IMG/VR virus record: IMGVR_UViG_3300012164_000002
Coordinates: 13,745-77,744 of that record
From: a virus
Reading direction: 5' to 3' (one strand)
DNA: 64,000 nucleotides
Shown here: positions 1,322 through 21,287 of the stretch, in pieces
Position numbering within the stretch: the stretch's first letter is position 1
How the letters are laid out: each line of letters opens with the position of its first letter
Translations under genes and position numbers: made by a program
Notes under the pieces: model-generated
Told to the model about the DNA's origin: nothing
Databases searched by the model: none
What the model saw: only the letters and a program-made list of their open reading frames with translations

Positions 1322-1548
1322 AAGATCTATTCGTAATGGTTCGCGGGGACGCTCGGGTGTGGCGCTTGGCGTCTTACGCCGCGAACGAGTTGTATCTCGT
1401 GCTTTCGGGCCAGTTAGGCTTCAGGCGCGCGCCGAAGAGCGAGTGCCGCGTGGGAACTGCGCGCGATTGGCAGAACTCGAGGCGGTGCTCCAAAGCGTGG
1501 CGTGAAGGCGGCGGAGAGATGTTCGCTGAAAGGAGAGCTCGGGCATGA
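1318..1548 (+). CDS. hypothetical protein
   Basis: GTGA/ATGA coupling fills the operon gap. Confidence 0.4.
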   Translation: MKDLFVMVRGDARVWRLASYAANELYLVLSGQLGFRRAPKSECRVGTARDWQNSRRCSKAWREGGGEMFAERRARA

Positions 1549-2408
1549 TCGCGCGACCGTTTCTCAAGTGGGCCGGCGGCAAGACTGCGCTTCTGCCGGA
1601 GATCCTTCCGCGCCTGCCGAAGAAGATCAACACGTACTACGAGCCGTTCGTCGGCGGCGGGGCGGTGTTCTTCGCGCTCGCGGCGGAGAAGCGGTTCGAG
1701 GGAGCGAACATCTCGGACGTGAACTCGGAGCTCGTAGAGGCCTACTCGACCGTCGGCGCGGATCCGAAAGGCGTCATCAAAGTTTTGAAGCGGCACGCGA
1801 AGAAACATTGCGAGGATCACTACTACGCCATCCGCGCGCTCAACCACACGAAACTTAGCCGCATAGAGCGTGCTGCGCGCACGATCTATCTCAACCGCAC
1901 TGGTTTCAACGGGCTCTACCGCGTCAATCGGAAGGGGCTCTTCAACGTGCCGTTTGGCGACTATGCGAACCCGACGATCTGTAACGAGGAGAATCTGATC
2001 GCCGTTTCAAGCTTGCTCATAGCGAAGCTCGGCGCAGCGGCGTGGAACGACGACTTCACGGTGGGCGTCGCGATACGAGACTTTGAGATCGCCGTGTCGG
2101 ACGCGAAGCGCGGCGACGCCGTGTACTTCGATCCGCCTTACGTACCCGTGTCGAAGACGGCGAACTTCACAGCCTATTCGAAGGGCGGTTTCAACGACGA
2201 GGAACAGGCGCGACTTCGCGACTGCTTCGCGCGACTCTACAAGCGTGGCGTGCACGTGCTGCTCTCGAACAGCGACACGCCGTTCGTGCGAAAGCTCTAC
2301 AAGGGGTTCAAGCTCGAGAAGGTTCAAGCTCCACGTCGAATCAACTCGAAGGGCGGCAAGCGCGGCAATGTCGGCGAACTGCTCATTACCGGGAGGCATG
2401 CACCATGA
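1545..2408 (+). CDS. dam: DNA adenine methyltransferase (Dam/D12 class)
   Basis: FLKWAGGK, YYEPFVGGGAVFF, YLNRTGFNGLYRVN and YFDPPY motifs. Confidence 0.92.
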   Translation: MIARPFLKWAGGKTALLPEILPRLPKKINTYYEPFVGGGAVFFALAAEKRFEGANISDVNSELVEAYSTVGADPKGVIKVLKRHAKKHCEDHYYAIRALNHTKLSRIERAARTIYLNRTGFNGLYRVNRKGLFNVPFGDYANPTICNEENLIAVSSLLIAKLGAAAWNDDFTVGVAIRDFEIAVSDAKRGDAVYFDPPYVPVSKTANFTAYSKGGFNDEEQARLRDCFARLYKRGVHVLLSNSDTPFVRKLYKGFKLEKVQAPRRINSKGGKRGNVGELLITGRHAP

Positions 2409-2746: not shown

Positions 2747-3006
2747 TGAAACAAGAAGTCGCTACCGCGATCGTGCTGGCCTCGATGTCGGATCGCGAAG
2801 TGCTCGAGGCCTATCAGGTCGCGGCGAAGACGAAGGATCCGCTCGTTAGGCAGCTCGGTCGAGAGCTGCTAGTTCGATTCCACCGAGCGAATCCGGCGTA
2901 CTTCACGCGCGAGATGATCGACAGGTACGACTCGGGCGAGCCGCTAATACCTAGGGAGGTTTCTCGTTCCGAGGACGTACAAGAAGAGAAGGACGGTTCC
3001 CGATGA
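2746..3006 (+). CDS. hypothetical protein
   Basis: TGATG coupling, 86 aa. Confidence 0.45.
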   Translation: MKQEVATAIVLASMSDREVLEAYQVAAKTKDPLVRQLGRELLVRFHRANPAYFTREMIDRYDSGEPLIPREVSRSEDVQEEKDGSR

Positions 3007-3635
3007 GGCGCTTCAATCTAGTTGTACTTTTGGCGTTCGCGTGTGGCTGTAGTGGCGAGGGCTTCACCACCGCTGGCCTGGCGGCCCTCGATGCGGCCGA
3101 TTCGGCGCCCGGCACCGGCGGCGTAGCAGCGACCGGCGGAGCCTCGGGAACGGGCGGCGCGTCGACTGGCGGCAAGGTTTCAACCGGGGGCGCTCCGGAG
3201 GCCGACGCCGGCGACAGCGCTCCACCGTCGTCTGGCGGACAGCCGGGTACCGGCGGCTCGCCTCAAACTGGAGGCGCACCTACTACCGGTGGAGCTCCAG
3301 CGACGGGTGGCGCTCCGAACACCGGCGGCGCGCAGAGCACTGGGGGCGCTGCCGTCGACGCTTGCGCGCTCGTCACGCACGACAACGGCCTCGGGGCGAT
3401 GTGGGAAGACTGCGTGCCGCTTGGCACCTACAGCCTCGAGCAAGCGATGAAGGCATGCAAGGCGTCCGGCGCCGCTTCGTGCACGAAGTCTATGGGATGC
3501 GGCGGCGACAACGAGACGGTGTACGGGCTCACGCTTGGCTCGCTCTTCGCGCACTGGGGCTACGGAAGCGTCAACGCTGGTTACGTCAACGACACGAGCG
3601 TTTGCCCGCACGACGGCGATCCGCGCTGGAACTAG
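3003..3635 (+). CDS. lipoprotein with TGGAP low-complexity linker and Cys-rich C-terminal domain
   Basis: Signal peptide/lipobox LLAFACGC; TGGA(P/S) repeats; 6-Cys C-terminal domain. Confidence 0.7.
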   Translation: MRRFNLVVLLAFACGCSGEGFTTAGLAALDAADSAPGTGGVAATGGASGTGGASTGGKVSTGGAPEADAGDSAPPSSGGQPGTGGSPQTGGAPTTGGAPATGGAPNTGGAQSTGGAAVDACALVTHDNGLGAMWEDCVPLGTYSLEQAMKACKASGAASCTKSMGCGGDNETVYGLTLGSLFAHWGYGSVNAGYVNDTSVCPHDGDPRWN

Positions 3636-4258
3636 CGCGGCGGCGCCGGATCTGTCGGAGCGTCGTGTGCCGCCGGCTCGAGTAGCAGCATCTCCTCAGC
3701 CGACTTGACGATCACGTCGTTGAGCTCGCCCTCGGTATCGAACGCCGGATCGATCTCATCTTCCTCGTCGTTCACGGGCGCACCGGAGTCGGGAGTACCG
3801 CGGTACAGATGTCCGACGGAGAGTGCGACTAGGCCGCCTTGCGGGAACATGTCGCAGATCGAAGCGACTAGTACGCGGGCTAGAGCGTCGATTCCTTCGC
3901 CTCCTTGAGCGACGTTGGCGAACAAGTAGTTCGAGATGAAGCCCGGCTCGACCAAGATCGCCGGGCACCGGTAGAACTTGATGTTGAACTCGCCGCGCGG
4001 CGGCCCGACGGAGATGCCGGCTTTCTTGTTGCCGAACGTTCCCGCTACGCGATCGATGTAGTCGCGGCCCCAAGCTTTGCTCTTGTCCGAGCCGTTCTTC
4101 GCGATGAGTGCCGTCGCGTAGTTGACGTGCTTGTCCGTCGTAGCGTTGAGGTGCTGCTCGACGGCGGCGACGCACCCAGCTTGATTCGCCTCGATCTGCC
4201 GCTGGTAGAGCGGCCCTCGGGCGCGCCAAACATGCCAGTGTTTGCCGTCGATTCTCAT
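3632..4258 (-). CDS. N-acetylmuramoyl-L-alanine amidase (Amidase_3), circularly permuted; endolysin
   Basis: RQIEAN..EQHLNA, PAILVEPGFISN, then LSVGH..DSGA..EGELN at the C-terminus; ATG coupled to upstream stop. Confidence 0.8.
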   Translation of the reverse strand: MRIDGKHWHVWRARGPLYQRQIEANQAGCVAAVEQHLNATTDKHVNYATALIAKNGSDKSKAWGRDYIDRVAGTFGNKKAGISVGPPRGEFNIKFYRCPAILVEPGFISNYLFANVAQGGEGIDALARVLVASICDMFPQGGLVALSVGHLYRGTPDSGAPVNDEEDEIDPAFDTEGELNDVIVKSAEEMLLLEPAAHDAPTDPAPPR

Positions 4259-4425
4259 GGGGGCAGTCCGTGCGGCACTGCTGCCGGGGGCTCCGCGCCG
4301 ATGGGCGGCATCTTGGGCGTCTGGCTGGCGCCGCACCGCGCCGCTGCGACCGTAACCGTAACGATTGTGAGGACTAGCAGGGCCGCCAGCGCGATGTCGC
4401 GACCCGTAGAGATGTGGGCGATCAC
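4255..4425 (-). CDS. small membrane protein (lysis accessory?)
   Basis: GTG after GGAAGG; TM segment IALAALLVLTIVTVTVAAARC; Pro-rich tail. Confidence 0.45.
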   Translation of the reverse strand: MIAHISTGRDIALAALLVLTIVTVTVAAARCGASQTPKMPPIGAEPPAAVPHGLPP

Positions 4426-4471: not shown

Positions 4472-4861
4472 ATGGAGTTTGGAACCAAGCTCGAGTTCGA
4501 ACCCGGCATCCCGCAGGACTTGCAAGCGGATATCCAAAACCTTCTGCCCGCCGAGGATCTCTTCGCGGCGTACCGTTTGGGGCAGATGACGTACCGCACG
4601 AACGACATCGTGCTCGTCGTCGCGCGTCACGACACTGAGGTGATCAACGCCTTCCCTCGCGGTCAGTACGTGAAGGCCGCGTTGAAGAACGACGAAGCCA
4701 GACGAAGATCGCGGATCGCACATAAGTCCGCACATCAAGTCGCGTTGCTCCCCGTCGAGTCGCCCGCCTTCTGGCTCGTCGTAGAAGATCGCGGATTGCC
4801 CGTTCCGGTCACGTTCGTGCTCTTCGGCACGCAGTACGCGACCGCTGCCGCAGCAAACTGA
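4472..4861 (+). CDS. hypothetical protein
   Basis: 129-aa ORF with TAGGAT 8 nt before ATG. Confidence 0.6.
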   Translation: MEFGTKLEFEPGIPQDLQADIQNLLPAEDLFAAYRLGQMTYRTNDIVLVVARHDTEVINAFPRGQYVKAALKNDEARRRSRIAHKSAHQVALLPVESPAFWLVVEDRGLPVPVTFVLFGTQYATAAAAN

Positions 4862-4874
4862 AAGGGAAGGCTCG

Positions 4875-5120
4875 ATGGCGAACGCGAAAACTGGAATCTG
4901 GGCCGCGGTCGGCGCGGTACTAGGCGGCGTTGCCGGCGCGTTCGCCGGTCGAGCCGCAGCGACGATACGCCCGCGCGTTCGATACTTCGCGAATCGAGCC
5001 GCCGCTGTCGAGGACGCGATGGTAGTCGGTGGGGCGGCGGGCTCGGTGGTCGGCGCATTCATTGGAGGCGCGGTAGGCGGCGAGGACACTCCGCCGACAC
5101 CGCCGCAGTTGCAACGATGA
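4875..5120 (+). CDS. glycine-zipper membrane protein
   Basis: Two GxxxG hydrophobic segments; RBS GGGAAGG. Confidence 0.6.
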   Translation: MANAKTGIWAAVGAVLGGVAGAFAGRAAATIRPRVRYFANRAAAVEDAMVVGGAAGSVVGAFIGGAVGGEDTPPTPPQLQR

Positions 5121-5299: not shown

Positions 5300-5484
5300 T
5301 CGGGCTTCGGCGGCACCGGCGTCTTCAAGTCCGCCAGAAACTCTTGGAGCTGCTGATCGAGCTTGTGCGTCGCATCGGTAGCACTCTTGTCGATCTTCTC
5401 GACCGTCTTCTTGTAGACCTTCACTGTCGGGTGCTGCCCGCTCGAGGCCGACCGTTTCGGCTTGAGCGATGCGCGCTCCGTCAC
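5287..5484 (-). CDS. hypothetical protein
   Basis: GTG overlaps the stop of the putative holin. Confidence 0.45.
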   Translation of the reverse strand: MTERASLKPKRSASSGQHPTVKVYKKTVEKIDKSATDATHKLDQQLQEFLADLKTPVPPKPDQGQ

Positions 5485-5750
5485 CCTCTGCCTCCAAACG
5501 AGGCGCGCCCGTGCACGGGCCAATTCTTCTTCATCTCGTCCAAGATGTCGCCGAGCCTGTTCACGGCCTCGATGACTTGAGATTGAAGCTTGAGCGCGAG
5601 CTCGGTGTAGTTTTTGGCGTCGTCGATTCGCGCGAGGCGTTCCGCTTGAAGCTCACGATCTTTGCTCCATGCGACCCACCCGACGACGATCAGCAGGACG
5701 CCGAGCAGACCTTGTGACGCTATCGACGTGACAGCCGAGGCTGGTTCCAC
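5481..5750 (-). CDS. putative holin (single TM plus coiled coil)
   Basis: QGLLGVLLIVVGWVAW TM followed by amphipathic helix; upstream of the amidase on the same strand. Confidence 0.55.
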   Translation of the reverse strand: MEPASAVTSIASQGLLGVLLIVVGWVAWSKDRELQAERLARIDDAKNYTELALKLQSQVIEAVNRLGDILDEMKKNWPVHGRASFGGRG

Positions 5751-8253: not shown

Positions 8254-8657
8254 AACTAGTCGCTAGGCGTAACGAGATCATAGGCCGCCTCATTCAAGAG
8301 AAGCCCTCGTCGTCGATTGTTCGACCGGACGAAACCAAAGGAGTGACCAAGTACGTATTGGTCGACTCCGTCGGCCCCGATGCCGCCGCGGCAGGTATCA
8401 AGATCGGGCACGTGGTGCTCTCGCGAATGATCCACGACATCTGGATAGACGGCGGCTTCGGCTTCAGACCGCTAGTGATGGAGCCGAACGCCGCAGCCGT
8501 TTGGGAGGACGCTCGCCCCGAGGACATGTTGATTCAAGTCAACAGCGGTAAGCAGTACGTGCCGCTCGATCATCCGGAGGCAGCGAAACCGATCGCCGGC
8601 CCCGCTCAGGGTCCAAGCAACGGACATCACGACCACGTCTCGGGAGCACCGGCATGA
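8250..8657 (+). CDS. divergent GroES/Cpn10-like co-chaperonin
   Basis: MKLVARRNEIIGRL..SSIVRP..VDSVGP..IKIGHVVL follows the GroES pattern. Confidence 0.6.
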   Translation: MKLVARRNEIIGRLIQEKPSSSIVRPDETKGVTKYVLVDSVGPDAAAAGIKIGHVVLSRMIHDIWIDGGFGFRPLVMEPNAAAVWEDARPEDMLIQVNSGKQYVPLDHPEAAKPIAGPAQGPSNGHHDHVSGAPA

Positions 8658-9271
8658 TGGGTGAGAACCCGCTTCTGCGTAGGCGCGGGCGCGCTTGCGC
8701 GTGCCCGGCGGCGCCGAGAAGGCTGCAAGCGCGCGAGGATCGAACGGTCGCCAAGCATCGACCGCCTGGCGTCGAGCCGATCGAGCTCGAAGGTGACGGT
8801 CGGGCAAAGTGCCGCCCGTTTCTCACGGTCAAGAAGGACGACGCGTTGTTCGCGGCGTGCAACGCGCTCGCCGATCAAGTCGGCCGGCTCAACGAGCCGA
8901 AGAAGGTGTTCCGCCTGCTTCAAGACGCGATCGGAGACGAGCTCAACGAAGTCTTCGGCGTCATGACGGTGGACATCCACGGGCGCTTGAAGGGGATGAG
9001 CGAGACGGGTAGAGGGGAAGCCTCGAGCGTGATGGCCCCAATGATCCCGACGGTTCGAGCGGCGCTGCTCAGCGGCGGCGAGGGCGCGATCCTCTTCCAC
9101 GTTCATCCGTCGGGCGTCGACGCCAAGCCCAGCCAAGCGGACAAGGATACGACGAAAGCCTTCGCCGATGCGTTCGAAGCAATCGGCATGCCCCTCATCG
9201 ATCACATCATCGTTGCAGGGGACGCGAAGAGGCGCAGCTACTACTCGTTTGCCGAAGCTGGAGCGATCTAA
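8654..9271 (+). CDS. RadC-like JAB domain protein
   Basis: ILFHVHPSG..PSQAD..T..LIDHIIV (HxH-x-D JAB motif). Confidence 0.85.
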   Translation: MMGENPLLRRRGRACACPAAPRRLQAREDRTVAKHRPPGVEPIELEGDGRAKCRPFLTVKKDDALFAACNALADQVGRLNEPKKVFRLLQDAIGDELNEVFGVMTVDIHGRLKGMSETGRGEASSVMAPMIPTVRAALLSGGEGAILFHVHPSGVDAKPSQADKDTTKAFADAFEAIGMPLIDHIIVAGDAKRRSYYSFAEAGAI

Positions 9272-19601: not shown

Positions 19602-21287
19602 ATGTTGTACAAGGTTCAACCGGGCGACAGCCCGACGACCATAGCCCGATCATTCGGCGTGCCCTTCTCGGCGCTCATCAACGCCAACCGGCACAAGCCC
19701 ACCACCGTCGTGAACGGTGTTCGGACTTGGAGCGACGTCAGGCACGGCGAGACGATCGAAGTGCCGGGCGTCGGAACTGTAGGGTTCGGTGTCGGTGACG
19801 CGGCGACAGACGCGATGAACAGGCTGATCGCCTCTGGCGGTCCTTGTCTCAAAGCGAACGTTGGACTCGTGTGCGAGCTGCAAAAAGTCATGGGCGTCAC
19901 AGCGGACGGCAAGTGGGGTTCCACTACCGCCGCGGCGGCGAGCACGCTCTTTCCCGGCATAAGAACGCCGGCGGGGTGCAGTCCGACGCCTTCGTGGTGG
20001 GTGAAGGGAGTGAGCGCATGCCCAGCGGGCGGCACTGCGCCCGCGCCTGCTCCGGCGCCCGCACCGTCGGTCACGCCGACGGCTGCTCCCGCTGCGGTGC
20101 AAGCGCTCGTGGGGATCAATCCTTGCGATGCTGCGAACGTGCAAGTGGTTTGCGCGGCGCAACGAGCGCTCGGAGTGAGCGCCGACGGGAAGTATGGATC
20201 GGGGACAGCGACCGCTGCGCGGAAGCTCGTTTCGAATGCGCCGCCAGGATGCGATCCGCGTCCGACGTGGTGGGCTCCCACCGGATCGTCGAATTGCGTC
20301 GCCGCTCCGAAGCCTACCGCTTCGCCGGCGCCAGCCGTGGCGCCTCCGGAAGTTCTCGCGCTCATCGGGATCGATCCGTGCAGCCAAGCGAACGTTGCGC
20401 TCGTATGTGCTGCGCAGCGCAAACTGGGCGTCACCGTCGACGGCAAGTACGGGACGGGTACCGCCTCGGCCGCGTACAGGCTCAGCCAGTCGACGCCGAA
20501 GGCGTGTCAGCCGAGCCCGGCATGGTGGGCGCCGTCCGGATCGAACAAGTGCGTCGCCGGCGCCGTCGTGGCACCGCCCCCTCCGCCACCGCCTCCTCCG
20601 CCTCCTCCGCCTGTTCCGAGCCCTATCACGCCCGCACCTGCTCCCGCACCGACGGTAATGGTGCCAGGAGAGGTTCGTGCGCTCGTCGGGATCAATCCGT
20701 GCTTGCAGCAGAACGTCGAGATCGTTCGCGCGGCTCAGCGCGTACTCGGTGTCACTGCGGACGGCAAGTATGGAACGGGCACCGCAGGCGCCGCGCGTCG
20801 ACTCGAGCCGAGAGCTCCGGCCGCGTGCAGCCCCGCTCCTATATGGTGGGGCGCGAAGGGCACCACGGCTCCGCCTGGCCCTCCGCCGCCTCCCCCGCCC
20901 CCGCCGGCGCCCTCTCCGGTTGCTCCGGCGCCGGGCCCCGCTCCGGTCACTCCGGGGCCTACTCCGGGGGTACCGGAGCCGATCGTGGTGGTGCCCCCAC
21001 CGCCCGGTCCGCCCCCGATGCCGCCGCCTGGTCCCGCACCCGGGCCGGCGCAACCGATCGTGGTTGCGCCTGAAGAGAAGAAGGGCCTCAGCACCGGCGC
21101 GATCGTCGCCGGTGCTGTCGGCGCCGTCGCTCTTCTCGGTGTCGTCGCCGTCGCAGCAAGCGGAGGCAAGAGCACGCGAGGCTCGCGTGGCCCGAGCGGT
21201 CGACGCGGCAAGTCCGGCAAGAGAGGAAAGCGCGGCGCACGCAAGTCGTCATCTCGCAAGAAGTCATCCCGCAAGCGCCGGAGGTAG
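19602..21287 (+). CDS. LysM plus four Cys-stabilised peptidoglycan-binding repeats, Pro stalk and TM anchor
   Basis: MLYKVQPGDS; 4x PC..N...AQ..LGV..DGK.G..T..A..C.P.P.WW; GLSTGA TM; basic tail. Confidence 0.8.
   Translation: MLYKVQPGDSPTTIARSFGVPFSALINANRHKPTTVVNGVRTWSDVRHGETIEVPGVGTVGFGVGDAATDAMNRLIASGGPCLKANVGLVCELQKVMGVTADGKWGSTTAAAASTLFPGIRTPAGCSPTPSWWVKGVSACPAGGTAPAPAPAPAPSVTPTAAPAAVQALVGINPCDAANVQVVCAAQRALGVSADGKYGSGTATAARKLVSNAPPGCDPRPTWWAPTGSSNCVAAPKPTASPAPAVAPPEVLALIGIDPCSQANVALVCAAQRKLGVTVDGKYGTGTASAAYRLSQSTPKACQPSPAWWAPSGSNKCVAGAVVAPPPPPPPPPPPPPVPSPITPAPAPAPTVMVPGEVRALVGINPCLQQNVEIVRAAQRVLGVTADGKYGTGTAGAARRLEPRAPAACSPAPIWWGAKGTTAPPGPPPPPPPPPAPSPVAPAPGPAPVTPGPTPGVPEPIVVVPPPPGPPPMPPPGPAPGPAQPIVVAPEEKKGLSTGAIVAGAVGAVALLGVVAVAASGGKSTRGSRGPSGRRGKSGKRGKRGARKSSSRKKSSRKRRR

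Follow-up and report, generated by a model that had tools for sequence, protein, structure and literature searches.

Amidase_3 is a main catalytic module of bacterial autolysins and phage endolysins and a favoured block for engineered lysins. The locus described here raises the question of whether a viral gene in which domain models recognise only part of this module encodes a truncated remnant, or a complete enzyme whose segments stand in another order. The gene lies near one end of a window (the whole stretch of DNA analysed, 64,000 nucleotides) that comprises bases 13745–77744 of the 85.6-kb IMG/VR virus record IMGVR_UViG_3300012164_000002, which has direct terminal repeats and is rated complete. 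Its 208-aa product is, in our assessment, very likely a circularly permuted and catalytically competent amidase of the Amidase_3 fold.

The complete coding sequence occupies positions 3632..4258 on the minus strand, with an ATG at 4258 and a stop codon at 3632–3634. This start agrees with those of the homologues, a GTG at 4336 being a possible longer reading, and the GC content at third codon positions (GC3, 0.78) is typical for coding sequence of this 64% GC genome. A sequence-only reading of the window had proposed the permutation from a series of motifs, all of which were found in the translated open reading frame (ORF) in the stated order: LYQRQIEAN..EQHLNA at residues 17–39, PAILVEPGFISN at residues 99–110, and LVALSVGH..DSGA..TEGELNDVIVKSAEEML at residues 143–191. 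The Pfam Amidase_3 profile (PF01520, 174 positions) matched residues 17–127 to its positions 56–165 (E = 2.5e−6), and an endolysin family in PHROGs was matched over the same residues. Absent from the N-terminal end of the protein are the first 55 positions of the profile, those with the GHGG..DpGA loop and the ligand Glu, in line with the proposal that the normal N-terminal segment had moved to the chain end. On their own, the last 81 residues matched nothing in Pfam, NCBIfam returned nothing for the protein, and a phmmer search of the single sequence against PDB sequences found nothing; the family profile did reach PDB amidases (E = 5e−12), in single stretches beginning at chain residue ~58–63.

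To compare the two orders directly, a 211-member family profile was aligned with hhalign to 35 canonical Amidase_3 domains cut from bacterial genomes. In native order, only residues 16–138 aligned, on canonical positions 62–222 (score 102). Residues 139–200 taken alone aligned over 143–195 to canonical positions 5–47 (score 35.5, P = 4.8e−6), pairing SVGH with GHGG, D.GA with DpGA, and Glu176 with the canonical ligand Glu. The two non-colinear matches that the sequence-only reading had anticipated were thus obtained, and a colinear alignment to canonical amidases appeared only after residues 139–200 had been moved to the front (177 columns, score 135, E = 6.6e−21) or in a tandem-duplicated profile, where the alignment crossed the junction, from position 143 to 338. 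A hidden Markov model (HMM) of the C-terminal segment found its best match at residues ~6–44 in 35/35 canonical domains.

The same data bear on the view that the protein is a truncated, catalytically dead Amidase_3 remnant, for instance a wall-binding module, with a C-terminal GH..D.GA..E that merely looks alike by chance. This would account for the fact that residues 17–141 alone align colinearly, in Pfam as in every sequence and structure search, and for the lack of a Pfam match of its own in the last 81 residues. However, the profile match of the C-terminal segment falls exactly on the missing canonical portion, and none of 200 column shuffles of this segment (mean 10.8, standard deviation 2.7, maximum 23.8) equalled the real score, while the reversed segment scored 14.1. 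In addition, His150, Asp157, Gly159, and Glu176 are 96–99% conserved in 211 sequences, down to 29% identity, and the structural model described below seats the segment within the domain with high confidence. We therefore regard a dead remnant as very improbable and retain the permuted enzyme as the preferred reading.

An AlphaFold2 model, generated from a 30-sequence alignment without templates, reached a mean predicted local distance difference test (pLDDT) score of 93.1 and a predicted template modelling (TM) score of 0.89. It shows a three-layer alpha/beta fold with a six-stranded sheet, in common with solved Amidase_3 members. Its elements run strand 8–12, helix 17–27, strand 31–35, strand 47–52, helix 58–75, strand 78–84, strand 100–104, helices 111–137, strand 142–147, and helix 176–193; this order equals the canonical one rotated by one strand-helix unit, and the C-terminal segment is placed in the domain with pLDDT 89–98. 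Foldseek against the PDB returned Amidase_3 enzymes as all of the best matches (~120–133 aligned columns, TM ~0.5 by query). The nearest known systems are canonical catalytic domains of solved structure, namely CwlV (1JWQ), a C. difficile amidase (4RN7), AmiC2 (5EMI), Cwp6 (5J72), and AmiP (7B3N), together with the phage endolysins PlyPSA (1XOV) and CD27L (3QAY). The fold is common to canonical amidases over residues 3–141, and structural alignments to canonical chains stop at residue 139–142. Among cluster representatives of the AlphaFold database, two entries matched the whole chain (TM 0.85 and 0.76), one unnamed and the other labelled 'MurNAc-LAA domain-containing'; every other match covered residues 17–138.

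Sequence and model together delimit the parts of the gene, all on the minus strand. The domain body (residues 1–141, 3836..4258) corresponds to the canonical portion that begins with strand 2 and ends with the last helix (Pfam positions 56–174), and includes the codon of His36 in EQHLNA (4151..4153), aligned to SIHaDA as the second His ligand of zinc in the canonical SxHxNA, and that of Glu104 in ILVEPGF (3947..3949), aligned to LVETaF as the catalytic Glu that ends strand 6. Residues 138–142 (FPQGG, 3833..3847, pLDDT 94–97) form a short bridge between the old C- and N-termini. The transplanted unit, N-terminal in canonical domains (residues 142–195, 3674..3835) and supported by hhalign, the shuffles, and the segment HMM, consists of strand 142–147, a GH..D.GA loop with an inserted acidic loop at 161–175, and helix 176–193. 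It carries the codons of His150 in SVGH (3809..3811), aligned to GH as the first zinc-ligand His of the canonical GHGG, and of Glu176 (3731..3733), aligned to E(K) as the zinc-binding Glu with which canonical helix 1 starts. Past residue 195 there is just a 13-residue proline-rich tail (residues 196–208, 3635..3673), which is not conserved in the family and is probably disordered (pLDDT of the last block, 67); no cell-wall-binding domain was detected, as the sequence-only reading had stated. Counting His-to-Glu spacing by regular expression was not used, being spoiled by the acidic residues of the inserted loop.

We then considered how far this arrangement extends beyond one gene. A word search found 70 homologues of similar length, and an exhaustive search with the profile yielded, at 50% identity, 169 clusters with E ≤1e−30, or 356 with E ≤1e−10; each of the best 150 clusters matched in one colinear stretch. 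Across 211 aligned members (29–80% identical to the viral protein, median 38%), all three proposed zinc ligands and the catalytic Glu, whose presence had been claimed from the single sequence, are conserved at 98–100% (His36 100%, Glu104 99%, His150 99%, Glu176 98%), as are Asn38 (100%), Ser147 (99%), and Gly149 (98%), with Asp157 at 96% and Gly159 at 99%. The link residues Phe138 and Gly142 recur in 183/211 and 193/211 sequences, respectively, an indication that the permutation arose once. The search for homologues with the same order, suggested alongside the initial proposal, gave the body followed by the C-terminal unit in 209/215 relatives, the remaining six being without a C-terminal segment. 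As for a duplication intermediate, with the strand-helix unit at both ends, the one candidate (locus L060, in which the Pfam alignment begins at profile position 6) was an over-extended arginine-rich ORF, and the 'NNC' architectures seen among the relatives are insertions and not duplications.

This family-wide order effectively refutes the possibility that the arrangement is an artefact of assembly or rearrangement, or reflects the decay of a gene in one contig, for which nothing but the unusual order itself would speak. Relatives are carried by independent metagenomes, by 13 IMG/VR contigs, and by 81 stretches in GTDB species genomes (the viral and genomic relatives at 28–44% identity), the identical protein occurs on three contigs, and the gene has an intact frame with coding-type GC3; we consider the chance of an artefact negligible. 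Of the 81 genomic stretches, 80 loci were kept. Locus L136, from an unpublished genome (G044), was excluded from all analyses, and no claim depends on it. The GTDB relatives are mostly Gram-negative, including Beggiatoa and Thiomargarita relatives, Burkholderiales, Desulfobacterota, Acidobacteriota, Vulcanimicrobiota, and Polyangia, while tblastn against 50,697 cultured phage records recovered no relative. In a midpoint-rooted FastTree phylogeny of 293 sequences, a clade of 89 stood apart from the rest (support 0.97); it held the viral protein of the window, 86 metagenome proteins, and 3 viral loci, and 0/72 bacterial-genome sequences. On this sequence tree, the family splits into a virus/metagenome clade, with the window gene, and a chromosomal bacterial clade.

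Relative to canonical Amidase_3 enzymes, with which identity is only 15–22%, the new termini of the protein fall between canonical helix 1 and canonical strand 2, and FPQGG fuses the old ones. The canonical colinear order (GH in strand 1, Glu in helix 1, SxHxNA, LxExgF; that is, His-Glu-His-Glu) is thereby replaced by His36 (third), Glu104 (fourth), His150 (first), and Glu176 (second). The permuted family further differs in its own invariant residues Arg20, Gln21, Glu34, Asn38, and Ser147, and the viral clade in the acidic loop between His150 and Glu176. The chain opens at the normal strand 2, passes His36 and Glu104, and reaches the normal C-terminal helix, from where the link of 4–5 residues (FPQGG) connects to the normal strand 1 with His150 and helix 1 with Glu176. 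In AmiP, the zinc ligands are His17, Glu32, and His85, with the catalytic Glu145 in strand 6 (PMC9929850), and the alignment equivalents in the permuted protein are His150, Glu176, His36, and Glu104, respectively. By this correspondence, Zn2+ would be held by His36, His150, and Glu176, and Glu104 would activate the water that cleaves the MurNAc-L-Ala amide bond, as happens in CwlV, AmiP, and PlyPSA; most probably, the chemistry does not depart from that of ordinary Amidase_3 members. The ~45-residue autoinhibitory insertion of AmiA/B/C-type enzymes is a gap in the viral protein in the hhalign comparison, so the active site should be constitutively open, as in phage and Gram-positive enzymes.

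Several points weigh against a permuted, active enzyme. The Pfam score of 28.1 bits is barely over the cut-off of 27; the resemblance of the C-terminal segment to canonical N-termini is modest by itself (hhalign probability 86%), and its single-sequence HMM E-values range from 5e−4 to 0.4. The convergence of His150 and Glu176 with His36 and Glu104 on one metal site is suggested by a compact, confident model and by conservation, and family members are predicted from homology to act as N-acetylmuramoyl-L-alanine amidases.

Databases label the relatives just Amidase_3 or MurNAc-LAA, and the permutation is not annotated. We found no description of a permuted Amidase_3 in the full-text literature that could be searched, many subscription papers lying outside its coverage; literature matches on permutation concerned genome termini, NlpC/P60, or unrelated folds. 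Within the searchable literature, then, the permuted Amidase_3 is undescribed; it is real and family-wide, with good support at the level of sequence profiles. Circularly permuted NlpC/P60-papain hydrolases (YaeF/YiiX, LRAT-like) form a large clade with a swapped order of catalytic residues (PMC6403190); they provide a precedent by analogy only, since their fold is unrelated and they are Cys-His thiol peptidases, in contrast to a zinc amidase. As a natural and widespread permutant, the family indicates that the Amidase_3 fold can accept termini newly placed between helix 1 and strand 2, and that 4–5 residues suffice to connect its old termini, which would give protein engineers a second route for attaching binding or targeting domains. 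It also points to an annotation gap: domain models report a two-thirds match only, with the risk that proteins of this kind are taken for truncated or inactive ones, and hundreds of clusters, among them a family on the chromosomes of many Gram-negative lineages, are so far uncharacterised.

The bacterial members share the full-length fold with the viral protein (TM 0.85, root-mean-square deviation 1.4 Å, 199 columns, 36% identity) and the same motif order. They differ in forming a separate clade, in a conserved C-terminal extension of ~35 aa in most, and in a chromosomal context, among housekeeping genes. A gene for a GerMN-domain (PF10646) lipoprotein lies directly downstream in 19 of loci L002–L081; in Malikia spinosa (L142:4580–8301), an S8 protease, the amidase, and GerMN follow in order, set among prfC, ribF, ileS, and lspA. 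In 53/72 full-length bacterial homologues, even the longest possible ORF has ≤15 residues ahead of the domain, leaving no room for a signal peptide, and a hydrophobic N-terminal leader was seen in 5 bacterial homologues only. At four loci (L040:5899–7722, L063:511–1692, L070:5482–6540, and L071:6004–7347) the permuted domain is fused to envelope enzymes; the fusion types there comprise a signal peptide with C-terminal PDZ and S41 peptidase domains, and an N-terminal Glucosaminidase domain (PF01832). A further fusion type has a possible C-terminal pesticin/lysozyme-like domain (weak match). The fusions to Glucosaminidase and S41/PDZ point to a cell-wall substrate, and the pairing of amidase and GerMN recalls partner-activated amidases such as CwlD-GerS. 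We tentatively propose, as a speculation that we would not yet favour, that the permuted enzymes are an old, separate branch of zinc cell-wall amidases, overlooked behind a partial Amidase_3 label. Its bacterial members would form a partner-controlled system of wall remodelling or recycling, parallel to CwlD-GerS, LytH-ActH, and AmiA/B-EnvC, and the viral clade would have borrowed the scaffold for lysis.

What the enzyme does for the virus is a separate question, and here we lean, with moderate confidence, towards its being the endolysin; it is the most likely lysis enzyme named for this virus. This role is suggested by the completeness of the virus, the absence of another hydrolase of the families surveyed, the lack of a hydrophobic segment, and the syntenic position of the gene. 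SLT, Phage_lysozyme, Amidase_2, Peptidase_M23, NlpC/P60, and Peptidase_M15_4 gave no match in the complete 85.6-kb genome, and an Amidase_3 search of the same genome returned the window gene alone. Neither a signal peptide nor an N-terminal extension nor a membrane segment was found in the protein, the highest 19-residue Kyte-Doolittle window (1.49) lying in the core helix and strand, and an endolysin of this kind would reach the wall via a membrane lesion made by another viral protein. In related viral contigs, whose amidases are 80% and 67% identical to the window protein, the amidase gene stands by itself; it diverges from genes of ~136 aa and ~80 aa and converges on a gene of ~190–223 aa, near a DNA methyltransferase.

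Against the endolysin assignment it must be said that the hydrolase survey covers seven families only, which limits the statement that the amidase is the sole hydrolase, and that no recognisable holin or spanin adjoins the gene in PHROG and Pfam searches of its neighbours. Moreover, the gene sits among early-type genes (DNA methyltransferase, RadC-like repair) and not in a defined lysis cassette. The flanking genes are a DNA methyltransferase (1545–2408, plus strand; phrog_56, E = 2e−66) and a member of a DNA-repair protein family (8654–9271, plus strand; phrog_10276, E = 2.7e−20; RadC in related contigs), which suggests that the amidase lies among early or DNA-metabolism genes.

Such a setting leaves some room for a genuine permuted amidase that is not a lysis enzyme and would serve virion-associated wall opening at entry or, for example, wall remodelling during infection. 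Its position outside the structural block, the missing holin or spanin, the membrane-anchored LysM and PG_binding proteins in the particle module, which could cooperate with a wall enzyme, and the chromosomal bacterial branch, clearly not a phage lysis gene, would all fit this alternative. Yet the amidase itself has no membrane anchor, and it is the sole peptidoglycan hydrolase found in the survey of seven families, while the release of a lytic virus from a walled host requires such an enzyme; amidases with a single domain and no leader are also typical endolysins of phages with Gram-negative hosts (PMC9929850). A non-lysis role thus seems possible though unlikely, and release by an endolysin is the reading we carry forward.

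Upstream of the amidase, a divergently transcribed pair of genes (4472..5120, plus strand) encodes proteins of 129 aa and 81 aa, an arrangement kept in related viruses. The 81-aa protein (4875–5120, plus strand), ~0.6 kb from the amidase, has two glycine-zipper hydrophobic segments, although its glycine-zipper Pfam matches are sub-threshold and PHROGs gave no match; judged from these segments, it is a candidate membrane partner, either a membrane-lesion protein or a holin. A scan for promoters and terminators around the amidase gene gave nothing useful.

Three further proteins of the window were recorded. An 89-aa protein (5481–5750, minus strand), without a database match, combines a hydrophobic segment at the N-terminus with a probable coiled coil after it; this and the 81-aa product, as small membrane-type proteins, are possible lysis accessory proteins. 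A 210-aa ORF (3003–3635, plus strand) converges on the amidase, the stop codons of both overlapping, and comprises a leader of the lipoprotein type (..LLAFACGCSG), a long linker rich in Gly, Thr, and Pro, and a C-terminal domain rich in Cys; neither Pfam nor PHROGs gave a match, and similar-sized genes stand at the same position in related viruses. Finally, within the particle gene block, a 561-aa protein (19602–21287, plus strand) shows matches to LysM and PG_binding_1/PG_binding_3, which makes it a wall-binding protein, with no recognised hydrolase domain.
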